Shown: positions 1-37,010 of the stretch, piece after piece
Layout: each line of letters starts with the position of its first letter
Position numbering within the stretch: the first letter of the stretch is position 1
IMG/VR virus record: IMGVR_UViG_2778261177_000006
Direction: 5' to 3' (one strand)
Origin: a virus
Taxonomy: Duplodnaviria; Heunggongvirae; Uroviricota; Caudoviricetes
Length of the DNA: 37,010 nt
Translations under genes and position numbers: made by a program
The notes under the pieces: model-generated
What the model was told of the DNA's origin: nothing
Databases searched by the model: none
The model's input: only the letters and a program-made list of their open reading frames with translations

Positions 1-1293
<1,293 letters not shown>

Positions 1294-1312: not shown

Positions 1313-1338
1313 TAAAAAGCGCCTGCGGGCGCTTTAAG
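1313..1338 (+). terminator. Weak hairpin just after serS stop (agcgcc-tgcg-ggcgct)
   Basis: GC stem of 6 bp with 4-nt loop directly after the serS stop; only a short T tract follows, so weak on its own. Confidence 0.35.
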
Positions 1339-1410
1339 TAGAGGTTTAATCATTTGAAAATAAATGGATTTTATTTTTAAGTGTCCATATAACGTCCATC
1401 TTTGAATGCA

Positions 1411-1447
1411 AAAAGCCCACAGCTTCTATGCTGTGGGCTTTGTTTTT
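1411..1447. terminator. Bidirectional rho-independent terminator (agcccacag...ctgtgggct, flanked by A run and T run)
   Basis: 9-bp perfect stem flanked by AAAA upstream and TTGTTTTT downstream, so it reads as hairpin plus U tract on either strand. Confidence 0.6.
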
Positions 1448-1469: not shown

Positions 1470-1503
1470 CCAAAAAGAAAACCCGCAGTTTTTACGCTGC
1501 GGG
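1470..1503 (-). terminator. Minus-strand rho-independent terminator, probable 3' end of the hok-like transcript
   Basis: Stem cccgcag/ctgcggg; on the minus strand the hairpin is followed by TTTTCTTTTT. Confidence 0.5.
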
Positions 1504-1595
1504 CTTGTTGTTCACGTCAACTGGAAATAGGGTGCCTTTTCGACCTTTACCCTGGCAACCGATTGACGGGGGATTGCTCCCCCGTCGCGGTTTCC

Positions 1596-1736
1596 TTACT
1601 GCTTACACTGTAAGAACGCCGCAAACTCCGCTCCCCAGAAGCTCATCCGTATTTCACACAGCGAACCGTGCAGCATCCAGATGATGAGGATTACCGTCAC
1701 GCAGAACGTGATGGCCATAAGCGATTTTTGCGACAT
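1596..1736 (-). CDS. Hok/Gef-family type I toxin, 46 aa (MSQKSLMAITFCVTVILIIWMLHGSLCEIRMSFWGAEFAAFLQCKQ)
   Basis: Hand-translated minus-strand ORF (below the ORF-track length cutoff): ATG preceded by AAGGAG at 8 nt; hydrophobic N-terminal helix followed by the SLCEIR motif and an AAFLxCK tail, as in Hok/HokA-type toxins. Confidence 0.6.
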   Translation of the reverse strand: MSQKSLMAITFCVTVILIIWMLHGSLCEIRMSFWGAEFAAFLQCKQ

Positions 1737-1866
1737 AGCGCTTGCTCCTTTGTTGGAGAGGCGCTAACCTACGACTTGCGAAGGTTGTATGGTCAGGGCC
1801 TCGGTTAAACAAAAATGTTTTCCGGGGCCTTTCCACATCCGGCCTTCGGGTATTCCCTCCGACCAT
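1654..1866 (-). CDS. mok-like overlapping reading frame (70 aa) coupling translation to the hok-like toxin
   Basis: ORF-track 70-aa ORF starts upstream of the hok-like ORF, overlaps it in another frame and ends inside it, which is the mok/hok arrangement; no independent sequence signature. Confidence 0.35.
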   Translation of the reverse strand: MVGGNTRRPDVERPRKTFLFNRGPDHTTFASRRLAPLQQRSKRYVAKIAYGHHVLRDGNPHHLDAARFAV

Positions 1867-1926
1867 CAGCCGAAAGGCACCCGCGCGTAATCTATCGCTT
1901 TTTTGTTACTCCGGCAATTCTGCCTG

Positions 1927-2187
1927 TTAATTCTGAGGTAAAGGCAAGCTCATCTGATTGTTTCCCCTGTGTGAAGCTGGCAGCTCATGCCACGGGATAC
2001 CTTCTGATGAGTGAACGCCGGAGGCGTGTTTCGATGTGAATTTATGGAAAGCTTCCAGTGTTGAGAAGCATACGCCGCATTCCAGGTTGTTACACTGGTA
2101 ATACTTTTGCCGCACGGTGTTTGAATCATTTTCCGGACGACTGGTGCGGATACGGGCAGATGCGCCACAAAGCGGACAACGGAACAT
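1927..2187 (-). CDS. ogr: Ogr/Delta-family zinc-finger late-gene transcriptional activator (86 aa)
   Basis: N-terminal CPLC and downstream CNNLEC form a C-x2-C...C-x4-C finger; small basic protein; AAGGGAGG before the ATG; sits next to tail gene D as ogr does in P2. Confidence 0.8.
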   Translation of the reverse strand: MFRCPLCGASARIRTSRPENDSNTVRQKYYQCNNLECGVCFSTLEAFHKFTSKHASGVHSSEGIPWHELPASHRGNNQMSLPLPQN

Positions 2188-25648: not shown

Positions 25649-25963
25649 TCACTCTGGGAAAAATGACTGAATGTTCTTTCTTATCTCGCTAGTGCTGTGA
25701 TTGCTTCCGGTGGCAGGTGCGCTGGCATATTTACTCTGAATATTATTCTTGGCTGGCGCAGCTCCTTCTTCCGGCCATTCGGCCAACCAATAGGCAAATG
25801 CAGGATCGCGTTTTATGAGTGCCAGCCCGGCCAGAAAGGCCGCGCGTTGCGCGCGGCTGCGTTCAGAGGCTGGCAGGCTGTCGAGGTAATTACACGCCTC
25901 CCGTTCACTATTGACGGCGACTGGCTTCAGATAGAAACTTATCCGTCTGGTTGGTGTCGTCAT
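25649..25963 (-). CDS. parR: ParR-like ribbon-helix-helix centromere-binding protein (about 104 aa, start at MTTPTRRISF)
   Basis: RISFYLKPVAVNSEREACNYLDSLPASERSRAQRAAFLAGLAL closely parallels plasmid R1 ParR (RTIAFKLNPDVNQTDKIVCDTLDSIPQGERSRLNRAALTAGLAL); AAGGAG RBS; immediately downstream of parM. Confidence 0.75.
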   Translation of the reverse strand: MTTPTRRISFYLKPVAVNSEREACNYLDSLPASERSRAQRAAFLAGLALIKRDPAFAYWLAEWPEEGAAPAKNNIQSKYASAPATGSNHSTSEIRKNIQSFFPE

Positions 25964-25967
25964 TGGT

Positions 25968-26927
25968 TTACTCCTTGTCCATTGCGTACAAACCATTGAC
26001 CAGAGCAAACTGTGGCACCCCGTCCGCGATGAAAGTCGCATTAACTCCGCAGGCTTCGCGGATAGCGGGTGCCACAATCTCCGCCCCGCCACCGACAACC
26101 ATCACCCGCCCGTAACCCGAAAAACCCGCCAGCGCGCGGATCACTCGTTGTTTCAGCGTTTCTTCCTTTTCACGAATAACCGCCATCAGGCTGTCGTAAT
26201 GCGCGTCATTGTGGATGTGCTGGCGCAGCCAGGCTTCATCGTGGCGATGTTCGATAATGGTATTGGCGATATGGTGACTGGTACGCATACCGTTAGTGGC
26301 CATCACCGACAGTACGGCATCGGCCATCAGGGAAACGCCTACGTGTGGATCGCAAAACACCTGGCTGATACCTGCCAGTTGTCCCTGGACCTTTGCCACA
26401 TCCAGCGTGGTTCCGCCTAAATCCACAATCAGCAGGGATTCAAACGGACTCATGTCAGCCAGTGCTTTAAAACCAGCCGGAATGGATTCAGGCATAACCC
26501 GTACGTTACGGATAGTGAATGCTTTTCCGTTCTGGTACGCCACCGGGCGCATGACGTTTGCTTTTTTGCGGTTGATGTTGGCCATGTCCGGCTGTGCGTT
26601 TGTGTCGAAATATTCGCTCAGTGGCAGGGTGACAACCACATCCACTTCCTGTGGTGTGATGCCTGATTTGACCAGCGCGTGATGAATGGCAATGACATTC
26701 ACATCGCTGTACTGGTATTGCGTGTCGGTCGTCTGGACAAAGCGATCGCTGACCGGATCAAAACCATAGCGCACGCCATCAAGCATGTAGTTTGCGGGCT
26801 GCGTGCCACCGAACGGCGCAGACCATTCCGACTTGAAGCTGTTCGGGCTGATGGCGTTGCGGCGTTCGCCGTTCTCAGTCCATGCCAGCTTGATGTTGGT
26901 GGAGCCGTCGTCGATACAAATTTTCAT
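25968..26927 (-). CDS. parM: ParM/StbA-family actin-like segregation ATPase (319 aa)
   Basis: Near-complete colinearity with R1 ParM landmarks: IDDGSTNIKL, SPNSFK, YSDVNV-A-HHAL, KKAN, VMPESIPAG, DLGGTTLD, GVSL, VMV-GGGAE, LVNGLY. Confidence 0.85.
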   Translation of the reverse strand: MKICIDDGSTNIKLAWTENGERRNAISPNSFKSEWSAPFGGTQPANYMLDGVRYGFDPVSDRFVQTTDTQYQYSDVNVIAIHHALVKSGITPQEVDVVVTLPLSEYFDTNAQPDMANINRKKANVMRPVAYQNGKAFTIRNVRVMPESIPAGFKALADMSPFESLLIVDLGGTTLDVAKVQGQLAGISQVFCDPHVGVSLMADAVLSVMATNGMRTSHHIANTIIEHRHDEAWLRQHIHNDAHYDSLMAVIREKEETLKQRVIRALAGFSGYGRVMVVGGGAEIVAPAIREACGVNATFIADGVPQFALVNGLYAMDKE

Positions 26928-30501: not shown

Positions 30502-30680
30502 GGTGTGGCCTCGTACGTAGTAAGTTTTAAAAACTCACCATCCAGAGGTGGAAAACTCGGGGTGGTGAGACGTACAGGGTTTCCACAACCGGCTACGCAC
30601 GAATCCGGCCCGACCGAAGTCGGCCCTGTACGCCCCACCATAATTCTGACGCGAAAAAGACGTGGCGATACGGTACGCAC

Positions 30681-30701
30681 AAAAAAACCGCTGGCGCGGT
30701 T
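30681..30701 (-). terminator. Minus-strand rho-independent terminator (aaccgc-tggc-gcggtt plus T7 on minus strand)
   Basis: 6-bp stem preceded on the plus strand by an A7 run, i.e. hairpin plus U tract when read on the minus strand. Confidence 0.55.
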
Positions 30702-30837
30702 GTGCGCGTGCATAGTCAGCGGGGTGGAAATCCCGGCACCCGTTTTATGAGGTGCAGCGGAAATGTAACCTGACTGATTGCGGCATGGCAAGCGGTTTTT
30801 TTGTGAGAACGGCATACTAAAAAATCCTGATACTGCT

Positions 30838-30868: not shown

Positions 30869-31699
30869 TTACTTCACCGGAACAAACGGAACAGCGGTAT
30901 TGCTGGTCATATATTGCGGCAGCGTGCCGTTCCATTTGTTGATTGCTTCCAGCTCCATAACGCCGGGATTCTGACGCAGAGCTTCACCGCGTAAACGAAT
31001 GGCGTCAGCTTCAGCCTGGGCTTTTGTGCGAATGGCATCAGCCTGTCCGGCAGCTTCTGCGCGCAACATGTTGGCTTCAGCTTCGCGTTGCTTGACTTCC
31101 TGTTCGCGTTGCAGGGTTTTCTGGTTTGCCGTGACTTTGGCGTTAATGCTGTCGATAACGGTTGGCGGATATTCCGGTTTACCGACATAAGAGAGGCTCA
31201 TGACCTGAATGCCGATGGGGGTCATCTCTTCCTGAATATCTTTAAGTGCTGAATCCAGCAGTTCAGACTTACCACCGTCGATAAACTTATCGGTGGTCAT
31301 TTTGCTGGCCAGTCGGTTGAGTGCATCGGCGATCTTCTGGCGCAGGTCAGTGTCGGTAATGTCATCCACGCCTTTGCGGTAGGTTTGAAACACTGTGGTA
31401 ACTTTGGATGGATCAACCTTGTAGGCCACACCGATGTGATAGCCGATGGTTGTGCCGTCACTCATCTGAAAGCTGAACGGCTCATCGTAGGTCTTCATTT
31501 GTTTGAAGGTCGGGAAGATGTAAACCTCGGTATTCCAGCCAGTCCAGTAGCGGCCAACGCCAACCACTTCGCCAACGCCTTTGTCGTCGCCCAGCTTGTT
31601 GACTTTGATGCCCACATTACCTGGCTCAACGCGATCGCAGCCAACCAGCAGGATGGCGGCAAAAAGCGGGAGAATCTGAAAGAGTTTGAATTTCTTCAT
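30869..31699 (-). CDS. SPFH/band-7 (prohibitin/stomatin-like) domain lipoprotein, 276 aa
   Basis: N-terminal signal peptide with lipobox (LLVGC); SPFH core (GNVGIKV...) followed by an Ala/Glu-rich coiled coil (AEANMLRAEAAGQADAIRTKAQAEADAIRLRGEA). Confidence 0.8.
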   Translation of the reverse strand: MKKFKLFQILPLFAAILLVGCDRVEPGNVGIKVNKLGDDKGVGEVVGVGRYWTGWNTEVYIFPTFKQMKTYDEPFSFQMSDGTTIGYHIGVAYKVDPSKVTTVFQTYRKGVDDITDTDLRQKIADALNRLASKMTTDKFIDGGKSELLDSALKDIQEEMTPIGIQVMSLSYVGKPEYPPTVIDSINAKVTANQKTLQREQEVKQREAEANMLRAEAAGQADAIRTKAQAEADAIRLRGEALRQNPGVMELEAINKWNGTLPQYMTSNTAVPFVPVK

Positions 31700-36017: not shown

Positions 36018-37010
36018 ATGTCGATTAAGCAACTCAAAGACGGACGTTATCAGGTCGATATCAGACCGCAGGGGGCGGAAGGAAAGCGGATTCGAAAAAT
36101 CTTTGCCCTGAAATCAAAGGCTCAGGAGTTTGAGAAGTATGTGTTACAGAACTTTCATGACAAGCCATGGCAGGCTAAGCCAGCTGATCAGCGGCGATTA
36201 TCAGAGCTGCTTGATGCGTGGTGGATGCTTGATGGGCGTAATCAGGCTTACGGGGATAGCTACAGGGTTAGGCTAGGGAAGGTTGTTCGTGAAATGGGAG
36301 ATCCTCGCGCCAGTCAGATGACGCGAAAATTTATGCTTGAATATCGGTCAGAGAAATTACAGGCCGGCTTAATGCCGTCCAGTATTAATCGTGACTTATG
36401 CGTACTGTCTACCATGTTCACGGTGCTGATTGAAGCTGAGGTCTTTCACAACGCGAACCCTGTACGCGGTATACGAAAACTGAAAGTTCAGAACACAGAG
36501 ATGGCCTTTCTTTCTGATGATGAGATTGAACGGCTTCTTGAGCGACTGGAGGGTGATGCGCGTCGTGTTGCCATTCTGTGTCTTTCTACTGGTGCCCGAT
36601 GGAGTGAAGCATCGGAACTACGTGGAGAGCATATCGTTGGCAACCGGGTGACGTTCTTTAACACCAAAAACGGAAAATCCCGTTCGGTTCCTGTGGCGGA
36701 TTCGGTCGTGCCTCTGATTAAAACCCGTCGAACGGGGTTATTGTATCAGGTTGATTATCTGAAGTTCCGGGAGATTCTTCAGGAGGTGAAACCGGATTTG
36801 CCGAAGGGGCAGGCTACGCATGTCATGCGTCATACATTTGCCACACACTTTATGATGAATGGCGGAAATATTGTTACGTTGCAACGAATCCTGGGGCACG
36901 CAACGATTCAGCAAACAATGACGTACGCTCATTTTTCGCCGGACTTCTTACAGGACGCGATCAACTTTAATCCGCTGGCTGAAAGTGTCCATAAACTGTC
37001 CATCGATTAG
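36018..37010 (+). CDS. int: Tyrosine integrase, P2 Int family (about 330 aa, start at MSIKQLKDGRY)
   Basis: N-terminal MSIKQLKDGRYQVDIRP as in P2 Int; C-terminal catalytic box HVMRHTFATHF...LGHATIQQTMTYAHF (His-x-x-Arg ... Tyr); GGAGGGG RBS; stop is the last codon of the window. Confidence 0.9.
   Translation: MSIKQLKDGRYQVDIRPQGAEGKRIRKIFALKSKAQEFEKYVLQNFHDKPWQAKPADQRRLSELLDAWWMLDGRNQAYGDSYRVRLGKVVREMGDPRASQMTRKFMLEYRSEKLQAGLMPSSINRDLCVLSTMFTVLIEAEVFHNANPVRGIRKLKVQNTEMAFLSDDEIERLLERLEGDARRVAILCLSTGARWSEASELRGEHIVGNRVTFFNTKNGKSRSVPVADSVVPLIKTRRTGLLYQVDYLKFREILQEVKPDLPKGQATHVMRHTFATHFMMNGGNIVTLQRILGHATIQQTMTYAHFSPDFLQDAINFNPLAESVHKLSID

Follow-up and report, generated by a model that had tools for sequence, protein, structure and literature searches.

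Two described systems provide the closest points of reference for the locus analyzed here, hok/sok (parB) of R1 and hokW-sokW of the Stx2 prophage Sp5. The R1 locus no longer produces Hok once the mok start is lost (PMC9841398). The Sp5 locus is an experimentally established type I toxin-antitoxin system whose toxin appears on prophage induction and raises phage release, and a sokW construct with a mutated -10 box unleashed HokW toxicity (PMC8621323), making it the best functional precedent for what follows. [quoted passage not shown]

We analyzed a 37,010-nt stretch of viral DNA, referred to below as the window. In it, a P88-like E. coli prophage (Xuanwuvirus, P2-type) carries at its right end an accessory gene (moron) that we consider likely to be a type I toxin-antitoxin cassette of the hok/sok family. 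The cassette is of a known kind: an identical locus is labelled "Hok/Gef family protein" in RefSeq E. coli genomes, and the phage P88 record (NC_026014) annotates its gp52 as "hok/gef family protein". In the literature on P2-like/ogr/hok and on P88/Xuanwuvirus we found no paper describing it. The only unusual point is that the relatives of the cassette do not keep the mok leader frame.

A Hok/Gef gene inside the right end of a P88-like prophage

The features that place the gene are as follows.

1316-1335, plus strand: serS terminator hairpin, with the host/prophage junction (attR side) between 1335 and 1336 (genome comparison)
1336-1478, no strand assigned: right-end arm of the prophage, specific to the serS-integrating type (comparisons, terminator scan)
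1596-1736, minus strand: hok, gene for a 46-aa peptide, a predicted membrane toxin of the Hok/Gef family, stop codon included (Pfam, PHROG, RefSeq label, dN/dS)
1927-2187, minus strand: ogr, P2-type prophage late-gene activator (Pfam Ogr_Delta, 52.4 bits)
25649-26927, minus strand: parMR operon (StbA_N, 273.5 bits; Plasmid_stab_B, 86.8 bits)

The original prediction, made from the letters of the window, placed a Hok/Gef-like peptide between serS and ogr, and the open reading frame at 1596-1736 on the minus strand does encode a 46-aa peptide, MSQKSLMAITFCVTVILIIWMLHGSLCEIRMSFWGAEFAAFLQCKQ. The profile search proposed at that time bears the assignment out: Pfam PF01848 (HOK_GEF) matches at 30.3 bits, above its gathering cut-off of 22 (E = 3.1e-7, profile positions 5-42 of 42), and PHROG 251 matches at 82.5 bits. 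The hydrophobic stretch, read directly from the sequence, is AITFCVTVILIIWML. In an alignment with R1 Hok, residues C12, T14, C27, E28 and E37 are invariant and L26 lies opposite a leucine of R1; C12, T14, L26, C27, E28 and E37 are the residues that correspond to the Hok positions conserved at more than 80% (bioRxiv 10.1101/2025.08.07.668861). Between subfamily members the dN/dS of hok is 0.2-0.4, and every hok frame that could be read through yields an intact peptide of 45-47 aa (68 distinct sequences; in one locus, L012, hok is cut by a contig end and hence was not read through). By these sequence criteria, the peptide is a member of the Hok/Gef family.

Its place within the family was examined by name as well. 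The best-scoring named Hok model was that of the chromosomal hokA of E. coli K-12 (NCBIfam NF007290), at 35.1 bits against an equivalog cut-off of 89, a score so far under the cut-off that the window gene is not hokA. PHROG 251 carries the label "MokW-like host killing", which is a family name only; the identity with hokW that it suggests was rejected, since the primers in PMC8621323 show a different paralogue.

On one side of the cassette is ogr, directly upstream on the same strand, and on the other the attR junction behind serS. Because the cassette occupies the gap between serS of the host and the first gene of the phage, and because E. coli chromosomes carry several hok loci, it could have been a host locus that adjoins the prophage end by chance. 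Comparison across the junction speaks decisively against this. serS ends at 1293, and the prophage-free genomes among those listed match the window only up to 1335, where the alignment reads GCGCTTT/TTTTG in a K-12-type genome versus GCGCTTT/AAGTAG in the window; host homology thus stops 144 bp before the cassette. The arm that follows (1336-1478) has no homology to prophage-free E. coli and holds a plus-strand terminator-like hairpin (1412-1441) and a GTCCAT repeat (1378-1399), and homology to other P88-like phages starts only at 1465-1524. No segment of 1250-1500 longer than 12 nt recurs elsewhere in the window as an attL copy of the attachment core, because the window stops exactly at the int stop codon, and so the junction was located by aligning the window with a genome that lacks the prophage.

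Elsewhere, the cassette travels with phages. It adjoins ogr in P88, Chuche, P884B11, 500465-2, PhiR44_2 and Shae_phiSM (94-96% nucleotide identity) and is also found in prophages at other chromosomal integration sites. With the junction comparison, these occurrences refute the host-locus explanation, to which we assign a practically negligible probability, and the cassette is, on comparative grounds, a property of the prophage and not of the host. The locus had been described as a feature of the prophage-chromosome junction beside ogr; its position beside ogr stands, but it lies 140-590 bp inside the prophage. The parMR-like operon said to accompany it on the same element is indeed present, at 25649-26927 on the minus strand. 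Neither a missing Hok/Gef match nor a host origin unrelated to the prophage, outcomes named in advance as speaking against the original prediction, was found.

The whole 376-bp core of the cassette occurs in 1,549 of 5,426 complete E. coli genomes (29%), and "Hok/Gef family protein" is the label of every E. coli genome match listed. E. coli 1190 (NZ_CP023386.1) has the locus at 100% identity. With the fold statistics given below, this recurrence goes far beyond chance. The 46-aa subfamily is also represented in Stx phages, where it lies beside lom with 82% nucleotide identity to the window. IMG/VR yielded 80 loci whose peptides are 96% identical or more, and a one-genome-per-species collection gave six loci only, three of them on contigs resembling contamination.

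The predicted hok mRNA and its antisense RNA

The elements predicted around hok, on both strands, are listed here.

1889-1917, minus strand: predicted hok promoter, -35 TTGCCG (1917-1912), 17-nt spacer, -10 TAGATT (1894-1889) (sequence reading, conservation)
1824-1882, minus strand: predicted mRNA 5' end, +1 at 1882, with a tac/ucb-type hairpin (mRNA 1-59) (Rfam alignment start, folds)
1736-1766, minus strand: hairpin sequestering the Shine-Dalgarno (SD) sequence and AUG (mRNA 117-147), SD AGGAG at 1745-1749 (full-length fold)
1565-1586, minus strand: G+C-rich 3'-UTR hairpin CGACGGGGGAGCAAUCCCCCGUC, scan span 1564-1587 (terminator scan, fold, covariation)
1530-1545, minus strand: fbi-type element (mRNA 338-353), 3' partner of the mRNA 5' end (fold, pairing in relatives)
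1479-1506, minus strand: intrinsic terminator of the hok mRNA, 10-bp stem then TCTTTTTGG (terminator scan; closes the minimum free energy (MFE) fold)
1742-1770, plus strand: predicted Sok promoter, -35 TTGCTC (1742-1747), 17-nt spacer, -10 TAACCT (1765-1770) (conservation, homology)
1777-1834, plus strand: predicted Sok-like RNA, about 58 nt, ends accurate to a few nt (promoter position)
1776-1795, minus strand: hypervariable segment of the hok leader (mRNA +88 to +107), predicted target of the Sok 5' tail (column entropy)

The -10 box of the predicted hok promoter ends 7 nt ahead of +1, and the promoter boxes are kept in 78-80 of the 90 loci counted; on the minus strand, the terminator scan found nothing between 1927 and 1882. 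A generic sigma-70 scan of 1250-2300 reported no promoter, and the proposed hok and Sok promoters fit the sigma-70 consensus poorly (8/12 and 6/12); both are candidates put forward from conservation and homology, not consensus strength. The 5' end was taken from Rfam RF01794 (sok), which matches 1726-1882 on the hok strand in an alignment that begins at 1882 and shows the same first hairpin as the tac/ucb fold. Its score of 41.4 bits lies below the gathering score of 59, but the E-value (1.1e-7) and full model coverage (1-157) still indicate homology. Nucleotides 2-16 of the mRNA are invariant (50 loci). Rfam miRNA, leader and CRISPR matches at 1340-1515 were discarded as low-scoring products of back-to-back terminator palindromes.

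Folding of the predicted full-length mRNA (404 nt) gave a structure 6.6 standard deviations better than its shuffles (z = -6.6), in which nucleotides 1-15 pair with 338-353 in the MFE and centroid folds alike and the SD hairpin has pair probabilities of about 1.0. In agreement with what had been read as a hok/mok mRNA layout, the fold comparison thus recovers a 5'-3' pairing of the hok type, and the fold-back, the tac/ucb hairpin, the SD hairpin, the 3' hairpins and the terminator are all predicted, the last two at 1564-1587 and 1506-1479 on the minus strand. Across 30 relatives, the helices are 93-100% paired: the fbi helix in 92.9% of cells with one-sided changes only, the SD hairpin in 95.8%, and the 3'-UTR hairpin in 99.6%, with four of its nine pairs changing on both sides. 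Covariation lends the helices thin support, since the relatives are close to one another and no change is seen in the 5' strand of the long-range helix.

When the predicted mRNA was shortened in silico at its 3' end (nt 1-326 or 1-320), it folded into hairpins at 1-59 (tac/ucb) and 81-125 (target), and the stem probability of the SD hairpin fell from about 1.0 to 0.58; with nt 52-107 blocked, as a mimic of bound Sok, it returned to about 1.0. The inner pairs between the anti-SD and the SD remain 0.6-0.9 paired in the truncated-mRNA ensemble, so that thermodynamics alone do not explain how hok would be translated without a leader frame.

The predicted Sok promoter overlaps the hok ribosome-binding site, and its -10 box TAACCT is invariant in all 90 loci (the -35 box in 86). 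The R1-type locus has its Sok promoter in the same position with nearly identical boxes, and, judging from the primer sequences in PMC8621323, TAACCT appears to match the sokW -10 box that was mutated in the promoter-less construct. An antisense RNA had been expected on the plus strand around 1800-1910; the position of the promoter suggests that it is better placed at about 1777-1834. There it would consist of a single-stranded 5' tail, a hairpin (1795-1831) and UUU, three U residues only at its terminator, would be complementary to mRNA +49 to +106, and folds at -25.4 kcal/mol (z = -3.2). The leader opposite its 5' tail has the highest column entropy of the transcript (0.70, compared with 0-0.15 in the coding sequence), with 18 distinct 21-nt versions among 90 loci and a segment length of 28, 29 or 30 nt depending on the locus. 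A variability peak at the predicted target of the Sok 5' tail is what would be expected for a specificity determinant.

The overlapping frame and the mok question

1654-1866, minus strand: 70-codon ATG frame overlapping hok ("mok") (ORF list; judged not a conserved gene)

If the locus were a canonical hok/mok/sok system, the 70-codon frame noted in the original prediction would be a working mok that has to be translated for hok to be translated, and mok would be what Sok blocks. The frame exists at 1654-1866 on the minus strand, overlaps hok, and has the phase of R1 mok relative to hok (the A of the hok start is codon position 2); an SD-like GAGG stands at the site of the mok SD in R1 and hokC, and a canonical start in the overlapping frame is also present in 23 of 90 related loci. 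In the other 67, phage P88 among them, there is no ATG, GTG or TTG upstream of hok in this frame. All but two of the 23 owe their start to the same ATG at +17, which lies inside the 5' hairpin without an SD sequence, 75 nt further upstream than mok begins when the R1 and hokC leaders are aligned with it. At the site that corresponds to the ATG of mok, the window has ACA and P88 has ATC, and the 70-codon product matches nothing in Pfam, NCBIfam or PHROG. Because the hypervariable segment is 28, 29 or 30 nt long, the overlapping frame shifts, and in the window it is open only by virtue of a 1-nt length difference in that segment; 23 of 90, about 1 in 4, comes near the 1 in 3 that a random phase of the +17 ATG would give. 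As positive controls, K-12 hokC and the R1-type locus were put through the same test, which does detect mok in them. A canonical mok is therefore quite improbable here, and the frame, as far as these alignments tell, is allele-specific and not a conserved mok.

Two substitutes for mok were also rejected as conserved features. An ATG at +45 is conserved, but its frames run to 1-24 codons in varying phases and none reaches the hok SD. Near-cognate ATC/ATA codons 8-9 nt after GAGG, judged by eye from the sequences, open frames that stop at once or at the GGTTAG stop, and they are absent in some alleles. Since the subfamily keeps no mok leader frame, coupling to mok is probably outside its mechanism.

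E. coli K-12 is known to have several inactive hok loci on its chromosome, and the cassette could likewise be a silent relic, whose hok mRNA and Sok may be transcribed, whose Hok is never made since the mok start was lost, and which hitch-hikes on a successful phage. Most alleles have lost the canonical mok start, and in every conformation predicted the SD keeps most of its pairing. Mutating the start codon of mok makes the R1 locus non-toxic (PMC9841398), and by analogy most alleles of the subfamily might be translationally silent. We nevertheless regard a relic as unlikely. hok is intact wherever it is readable and keeps its low dN/dS while the overlapping frame decays freely; the promoter boxes, the fbi element and the tac and SD hairpins are conserved at 74-96% nucleotide identity whether the locus sits on a phage, a plasmid or a chromosome; it is difficult to see why hypervariability should be limited to the Sok target unless selection acts on a functional antisense pair; and most Hok coding sequences tested have proved toxic (42/45; bioRxiv 10.1101/2025.08.07.668861).

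A tentative third reading of this phage-borne, HokA-like subfamily, possible though short of probable, is a working hok/sok system free of mok, in which refolding of the leader opens the hok ribosome-binding site, Sok closes it again, the Sok segment diversifies, and the cassette serves with parMR as a maintenance kit. After 3' processing, the anti-SD GCGCCUCUCC would be captured by the former "mok SD" GAGGC, loosening the hok ribosome-binding site; Sok would pair with the capture segment and snap the SD hairpin shut, with RNase III cleavage in addition; and diversifying selection would act on the 20-nt recognition segment, leaving each prophage lineage able to neutralise its own toxin only. 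The thermodynamic test of this switch gave the partial opening described above, with the SD mostly still paired, and we keep the switch as a hypothesis suggested by modelling, not as a result.

Proposed mechanism and comparison with known systems

From the predicted elements we infer the following course of events. A weak constitutive promoter (1917-1889, minus strand) would produce an hok mRNA of about 405 nt, from 1882 to about 1479, that is inert at full length, its first 15 nt being paired with the fbi-type element 340 nt downstream and its SD and AUG held in a local hairpin. Slow 3' trimming would remove fbi, whereupon the 5' end would refold into the tac/ucb hairpin and a new hairpin would present leader nucleotides +81 to +125. 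A short, unstable Sok-like RNA (about 1777-1834, plus strand), made from the invariant promoter, would pair with this leader segment and lead to decay of the mRNA, to closure of the SD hairpin, or to both. Should the supply of Sok stop, when the prophage is lost or when induction shifts transcription, the 46-aa Hok would be made, insert into the inner membrane, and kill or lyse the cell. The outcome may be prophage addiction and/or an aid to lysis, by analogy with what was shown for hokW of Sp5.

Two modest leads emerge, the apparent absence of mok and the hypervariability of the Sok target. Found naturally in 29% of complete E. coli genomes, this hok lineage keeps all RNA elements of the R1 paradigm except the mok frame and is a ready-made test of whether coupling to mok is obligatory. 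The clustering of variation in the 20 nt where recognition by Sok should begin is consistent with selection, among co-resident prophages, for antitoxins that do not cross-react. If the mok-free reading were true, hok/sok together with parMR would give P88-like phages a plasmid-style maintenance kit; the presence of both in an integrating P2-type phage genus raises the question of a plasmid phase in the life of these phages.

The nearest parallel in sequence is P88 (gp52) with other Xuanwuvirus phages, which share the position beside ogr and partner genes including parM; P88 differs from the window in the Sok-target segment, in the att-proximal flank, and in having no start codon in the hok-overlapping frame. 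hokW-sokW of Sp5 is likewise prophage-borne and, by our reading of the primers, has the same Sok -10 box (TAACC) in the same place, but HokW is a different, HokD-like paralogue (51 aa, MKQQKAM...), unlike the 46-aa Hok of the window. With R1 hok/sok, the cassette shares the small Hok/Gef peptide with its C...T...LCE...E residues. Its predicted mRNA of about 400 nt resembles that of R1 in the fbi fold-back, the tac/ucb hairpin and the sequestration of the hok SD. Its predicted antisense promoter covers the hok ribosome-binding site as in R1, with 17-nt spacing and a -10 box of the form TAxCCT, and its predicted antisense RNA of about 60 nt is likewise directed against the leader 40-100 nt upstream of hok. 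The two peptides are only 33% identical (52 aa in R1 versus 46 aa), the hok AUG lies at +147 in the window versus +169 in the R1-type locus, giving the window a leader shorter by about 22 nt, and the window scores below the gathering threshold of Rfam RF01794. Whereas R1 hok/sok is borne on a plasmid and has a mok start, with its SD, about 55-60 nt upstream of hok, the cassette described here rides on an integrating P2-type phage, and its subfamily has no conserved counterpart of that start.

Hok Peptide Gene and Its Place in the Prophage

1596–1736, minus strand: hok, a 46-aa ORF between serS (1–1293, plus strand) and ogr (1927–2187, minus strand)

The 46-aa peptide, MSQKSLMAITFCVTVILIIWMLHGSLCEIRMSFWGAEFAAFLQCKQ as read from the ORF list, matched the Pfam HOK_GEF profile with 30.3 bits (E 3e-7; curated cut-off, 22 bits), in agreement with the original prediction of a Hok/Gef-like ORF between serS and ogr, and matched PHROG 251 (“MokW-like host killing”) with 82.5 bits. 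The cut-offs of the NCBIfam HokA (35.1 bits vs. 89) and Hok family (23.7 bits vs. 73) models were not reached. Aligned with R1 Hok, the peptide showed 33% identity and retained the residues that are >80% conserved in the Hok family, positions defined from 1264 Hok peptides (bioRxiv 10.1101/2025.08.07.668861); by this peptide criterion, its sequence places it in the Hok/Gef family. All related loci that could be read through encoded an intact 45–47-aa peptide, and dN/dS of the hok ORF was 0.2–0.4 in the subfamily; this hok-family gene is under purifying selection.

The locus had been proposed to sit at the prophage-chromosome junction. The serS end of the query was matched by 5426 of 5426 complete E. 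coli genomes, and in the prophage-free genomes among the matches listed, homology extended only up to 1335. The break falls within the run of T residues in the serS terminator, where GCGCTTT is followed by TTTTG in a K-12-type genome vs. AAGTAG in the window, so that the sequence is inserted DNA from 1336 onward. The cassette and adjoining ogr recur at 94–96% identity in phages P88, Chuche, P884B11, 500465-2, PhiR44_2 and Citrobacter phage Shae_phiSM, in prophages adjoining other host genes, and in the P88-like circular record NZ_CP148288.1; the P88 homologue is gp52, noted as “hok/gef family protein.” These comparisons identify the locus as cargo inside the prophage, and neither as a junction feature nor as unrelated host chromosome. 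More divergent copies were located next to lom in Stx phages (82%), on IncI1 plasmids (84–86%) and, in one record, adjacent to the gene for type B ribosomal protein L31 (74%). A search for the 376-bp core recovered it from 1549 of the 5426 complete E. coli genomes (100% identity in strain 1190), and it was labelled “Hok/Gef family protein” throughout the matches listed. We also noted E. coli-type hok (74–98% peptide identity) on contigs assigned to a Planococcaceae MAG, Vagococcus sp. and Xanthomonas pisi (L008, L009, and L012), which are probably contaminants of those assemblies.

At the junction itself, prophage insertion deletes the serS terminator T-run (GCGCTTTTTTTG becoming GCGCTTTAAGTAG; window 1316–1441), and a strong phage-supplied terminator-like hairpin (1412–1441, plus strand) follows ~80 nt past the altered terminator. 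Near the right end, AAGTGTCCATATAACGTCCATC (1378–1399) resembles AAGTGTCCATAAACTGTCCATC (~36981–37003), which forms the final codons of the left-end integrase gene; the two are candidate integrase arm-type binding sites, one in each att arm.

Elsewhere in the prophage, the following features were identified:

25968–26927, minus strand: ParM, two ParM domains (273.5 and 230.9 bits)
25649–26098, minus strand: ParR, Plasmid_stab_B (86.8 bits)
30558–30645, minus strand: C4 antisense RNA (Rfam 77.5 bits; gathering cut-off 45)
30681–30755, minus strand: isrK Hfq-binding RNA (Rfam 62.2 bits; gathering cut-off 50)
30869–31699, minus strand: SPFH/Band 7 family protein, 276 aa (108 bits), with a lipoprotein-like N-terminus, in the prophage early region

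The integrating P2-type prophage thus carries a parM/parR (StbA/StbB-type) partition operon (25649–26927, minus strand) and a P1/P7-type C4/isrK RNA pair. Fourteen P88-like phage records contain ParM with 95–99% identity, and phage D6 has a 48% relative. The ParM and ParR domain matches uphold the suggestion that the element carries analogues of both R1 stabilisation loci, which co-occur in the P88-like genus and are both already annotated there. The 34,461-bp NZ_CP148288.1, deposited as a plasmid, proves to be the genome of a P88-like phage that carries hok and ogr; this record and the parMR operon raise the question of whether P88-like phages are able to persist as episomes.

Predicted Folds of the hok mRNA and of Sok

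1564–1587, minus strand: G+C-rich hairpin 3′ of hok
1506–1479, minus strand: terminator-like site 3′ of hok (terminator scan)
1742–1747 and 1765–1770, plus strand: predicted Sok promoter (−35 TTGCTC, 17-nt spacer, −10 TAACCT), opposite the hok SD region
~1777–1834, plus strand: predicted Sok RNA, ~58 nt, placed from promoter position and fold

The Rfam sok model RF01794 aligned from end to end with 1726–1882 of the hok strand (E 1.1e-7), although at 41.4 bits the hok leader missed the gathering score of 59. The match begins at GGGUGCC (1882, taken as mRNA +1; hok AUG at +147), with a TAGATT box 7 nt upstream and TTGCCG 17 nt beyond that. The 3′ hairpin and terminator expected after hok are both present on its strand, and the 404-nt transcript from 1882 to 1479 folded at −172.5 kcal/mol (z −6.6; 0 shuffles as stable). 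In this predicted fold, nt 1–15 pair with nt 338–353 as an fbi-type fold-back, a hairpin at 117–147 sequesters the SD (AGGAG) and AUG, and the terminator hairpin closes the 3′ end. When the 3′ 78–84 nt were removed, a tac/ucb-type 5′ hairpin (1–59) and a new hairpin (81–125) were predicted, and the probability of the outer SD-hairpin stem fell in silico from ~1.0 to 0.58. The modelling thus shows hok-type alternative folds for the leader and 3′ UTR, arranged as reported for the R1 hok mRNA (PMC9841398), and the proposed hok mRNA layout holds in these elements. Across 30 related sequences the helices were 81–100% paired; four pairs in the 3′-UTR hairpin had changes on both sides and the long-range helix, its 5′ strand being invariant, had one-sided changes only, so covariation support is real but thin.

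Among P88-like prophages, mutual homology stops a few nt past the fbi element (mRNA > ~+355; L041-type flanks). At least three unrelated 3′ sequences occur in different P88-like lineages, each with its own terminator-like hairpin, and the hok terminator therefore comes from the variable att-proximal flank.

A generic promoter scan found nothing at the hok/sok region. The predicted Sok promoter occupies exactly the same position as that of the R1-type locus (TTGCGC, 17 nt, TATCCT), and its putative boxes were shown to be essentially invariant across the subfamily (TAACCT in 90/90 loci; TTGCTC in 86/90). As read from primers, the sokW promoter consists of TTGCCT, a 17-nt spacer and TAACC, and the “pro-less” mutant, which altered the −10 box, unleashed HokW toxicity (Takada et al., 2021, PMC8621323). 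Sok would start at ~1774–1778 and comprise a 5′ tail of ~18 nt, a 10+5-bp hairpin (1795–1831) and UUU, with a predicted fold of −25.4 kcal/mol (z −3.2). Its predicted length is close to that of R1 Sok (~64 nt). We infer such an RNA on the plus strand, as originally predicted, with a position that overlaps only the left third of the 1800–1910 interval then expected. The predicted pairing partner of its 5′ tail, mRNA +88 to +107, varies more than any other part of the transcript (column entropy 0.70 vs. 0–0.15 in the CDS; 18 variants among 90 loci), a peak that would be expected of a specificity determinant.

The Frame Overlapping hok

1654–1866, minus strand: 70-codon ATG frame overlapping hok (ORF list)

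This frame had been read as mok-like. We collected 90 subfamily loci and checked the sole frame that reads through into hok for an upstream ATG, GTG or TTG; the remaining two frames are closed by conserved TGATAG/GGTTAG stop codons. A start was present in 23 loci (26%), 21 via an ATG at +17 and two via an ATG at +45. None was found in the other 67, phage P88 included, where a stop at +91 to +135 closes the frame and no start follows. Whether the +17 ATG falls in frame is decided by the length of the hypervariable segment (28, 29 or 30 nt), and the observed share is about that expected from chance phase; moreover, this ATG lies inside the 5′ hairpin and no SD precedes it. In both positive controls the search found a textbook mok, with GAGG, 8 nt and an ATG at −57 open through hok in K-12 hokC, and an ATG at about +111 in the R1-type IncFII locus; the homologous position reads ACA in the window and ATC in P88. 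In these two control loci the mok ATG is in frame with hok, so that “Mok” is an N-terminally extended Hok and not an out-of-frame product. From the missing starts, the chance phase and the lack of an SD at +17, we concluded that the 70-aa frame, though present, is probably an accident of the window allele and that the subfamily appears to have no conserved mok.

According to the main rival explanation, loss of the mok start has left most alleles translationally silent; in R1, mutations of this start abolish toxicity (PMC9841398). The intact, constrained hok ORF and the conservation of the regulatory elements make this rival less likely.

Proposed Action and Relation to Known Loci

In the most likely reading, full-length hok mRNA would be inert and 3′ trimming would let it refold. 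By pairing with the leader thus exposed, Sok would cause the mRNA to decay and/or the SD hairpin to close again; the probability of this hairpin returned to ~1.0 when nt 52–107 were blocked in silico. Should Sok synthesis stop, Hok would be made and would damage the inner membrane. The phage could benefit through addiction, with cells that lose the prophage being killed, or through aid to lysis on induction, as demonstrated for hokW-sokW of Sp5, deletion of which halved phage release (PMC8621323). Since ogr is encoded immediately upstream in the same orientation and the scan predicted no terminator between the two genes, we speculate that lytic-cycle read-through could tip the hok:Sok balance.

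RefSeq and phage records already carry an annotation of this gene, and hok enrichment in prophages has been described, by authors who state that mok/Sok identification was not attempted (bioRxiv 10.1101/2025.08.07.668861); we therefore rate this kind of locus as already known. The apparent mok absence and hypervariable Sok target, for which our literature search found no paper describing either, are modest leads. Compared with R1 hok/sok, the window locus apparently lacks mok, one defining feature of the R1 type, and falls short of the Rfam sok gathering score, whereas in its presumed working it is likened to the R1 system.
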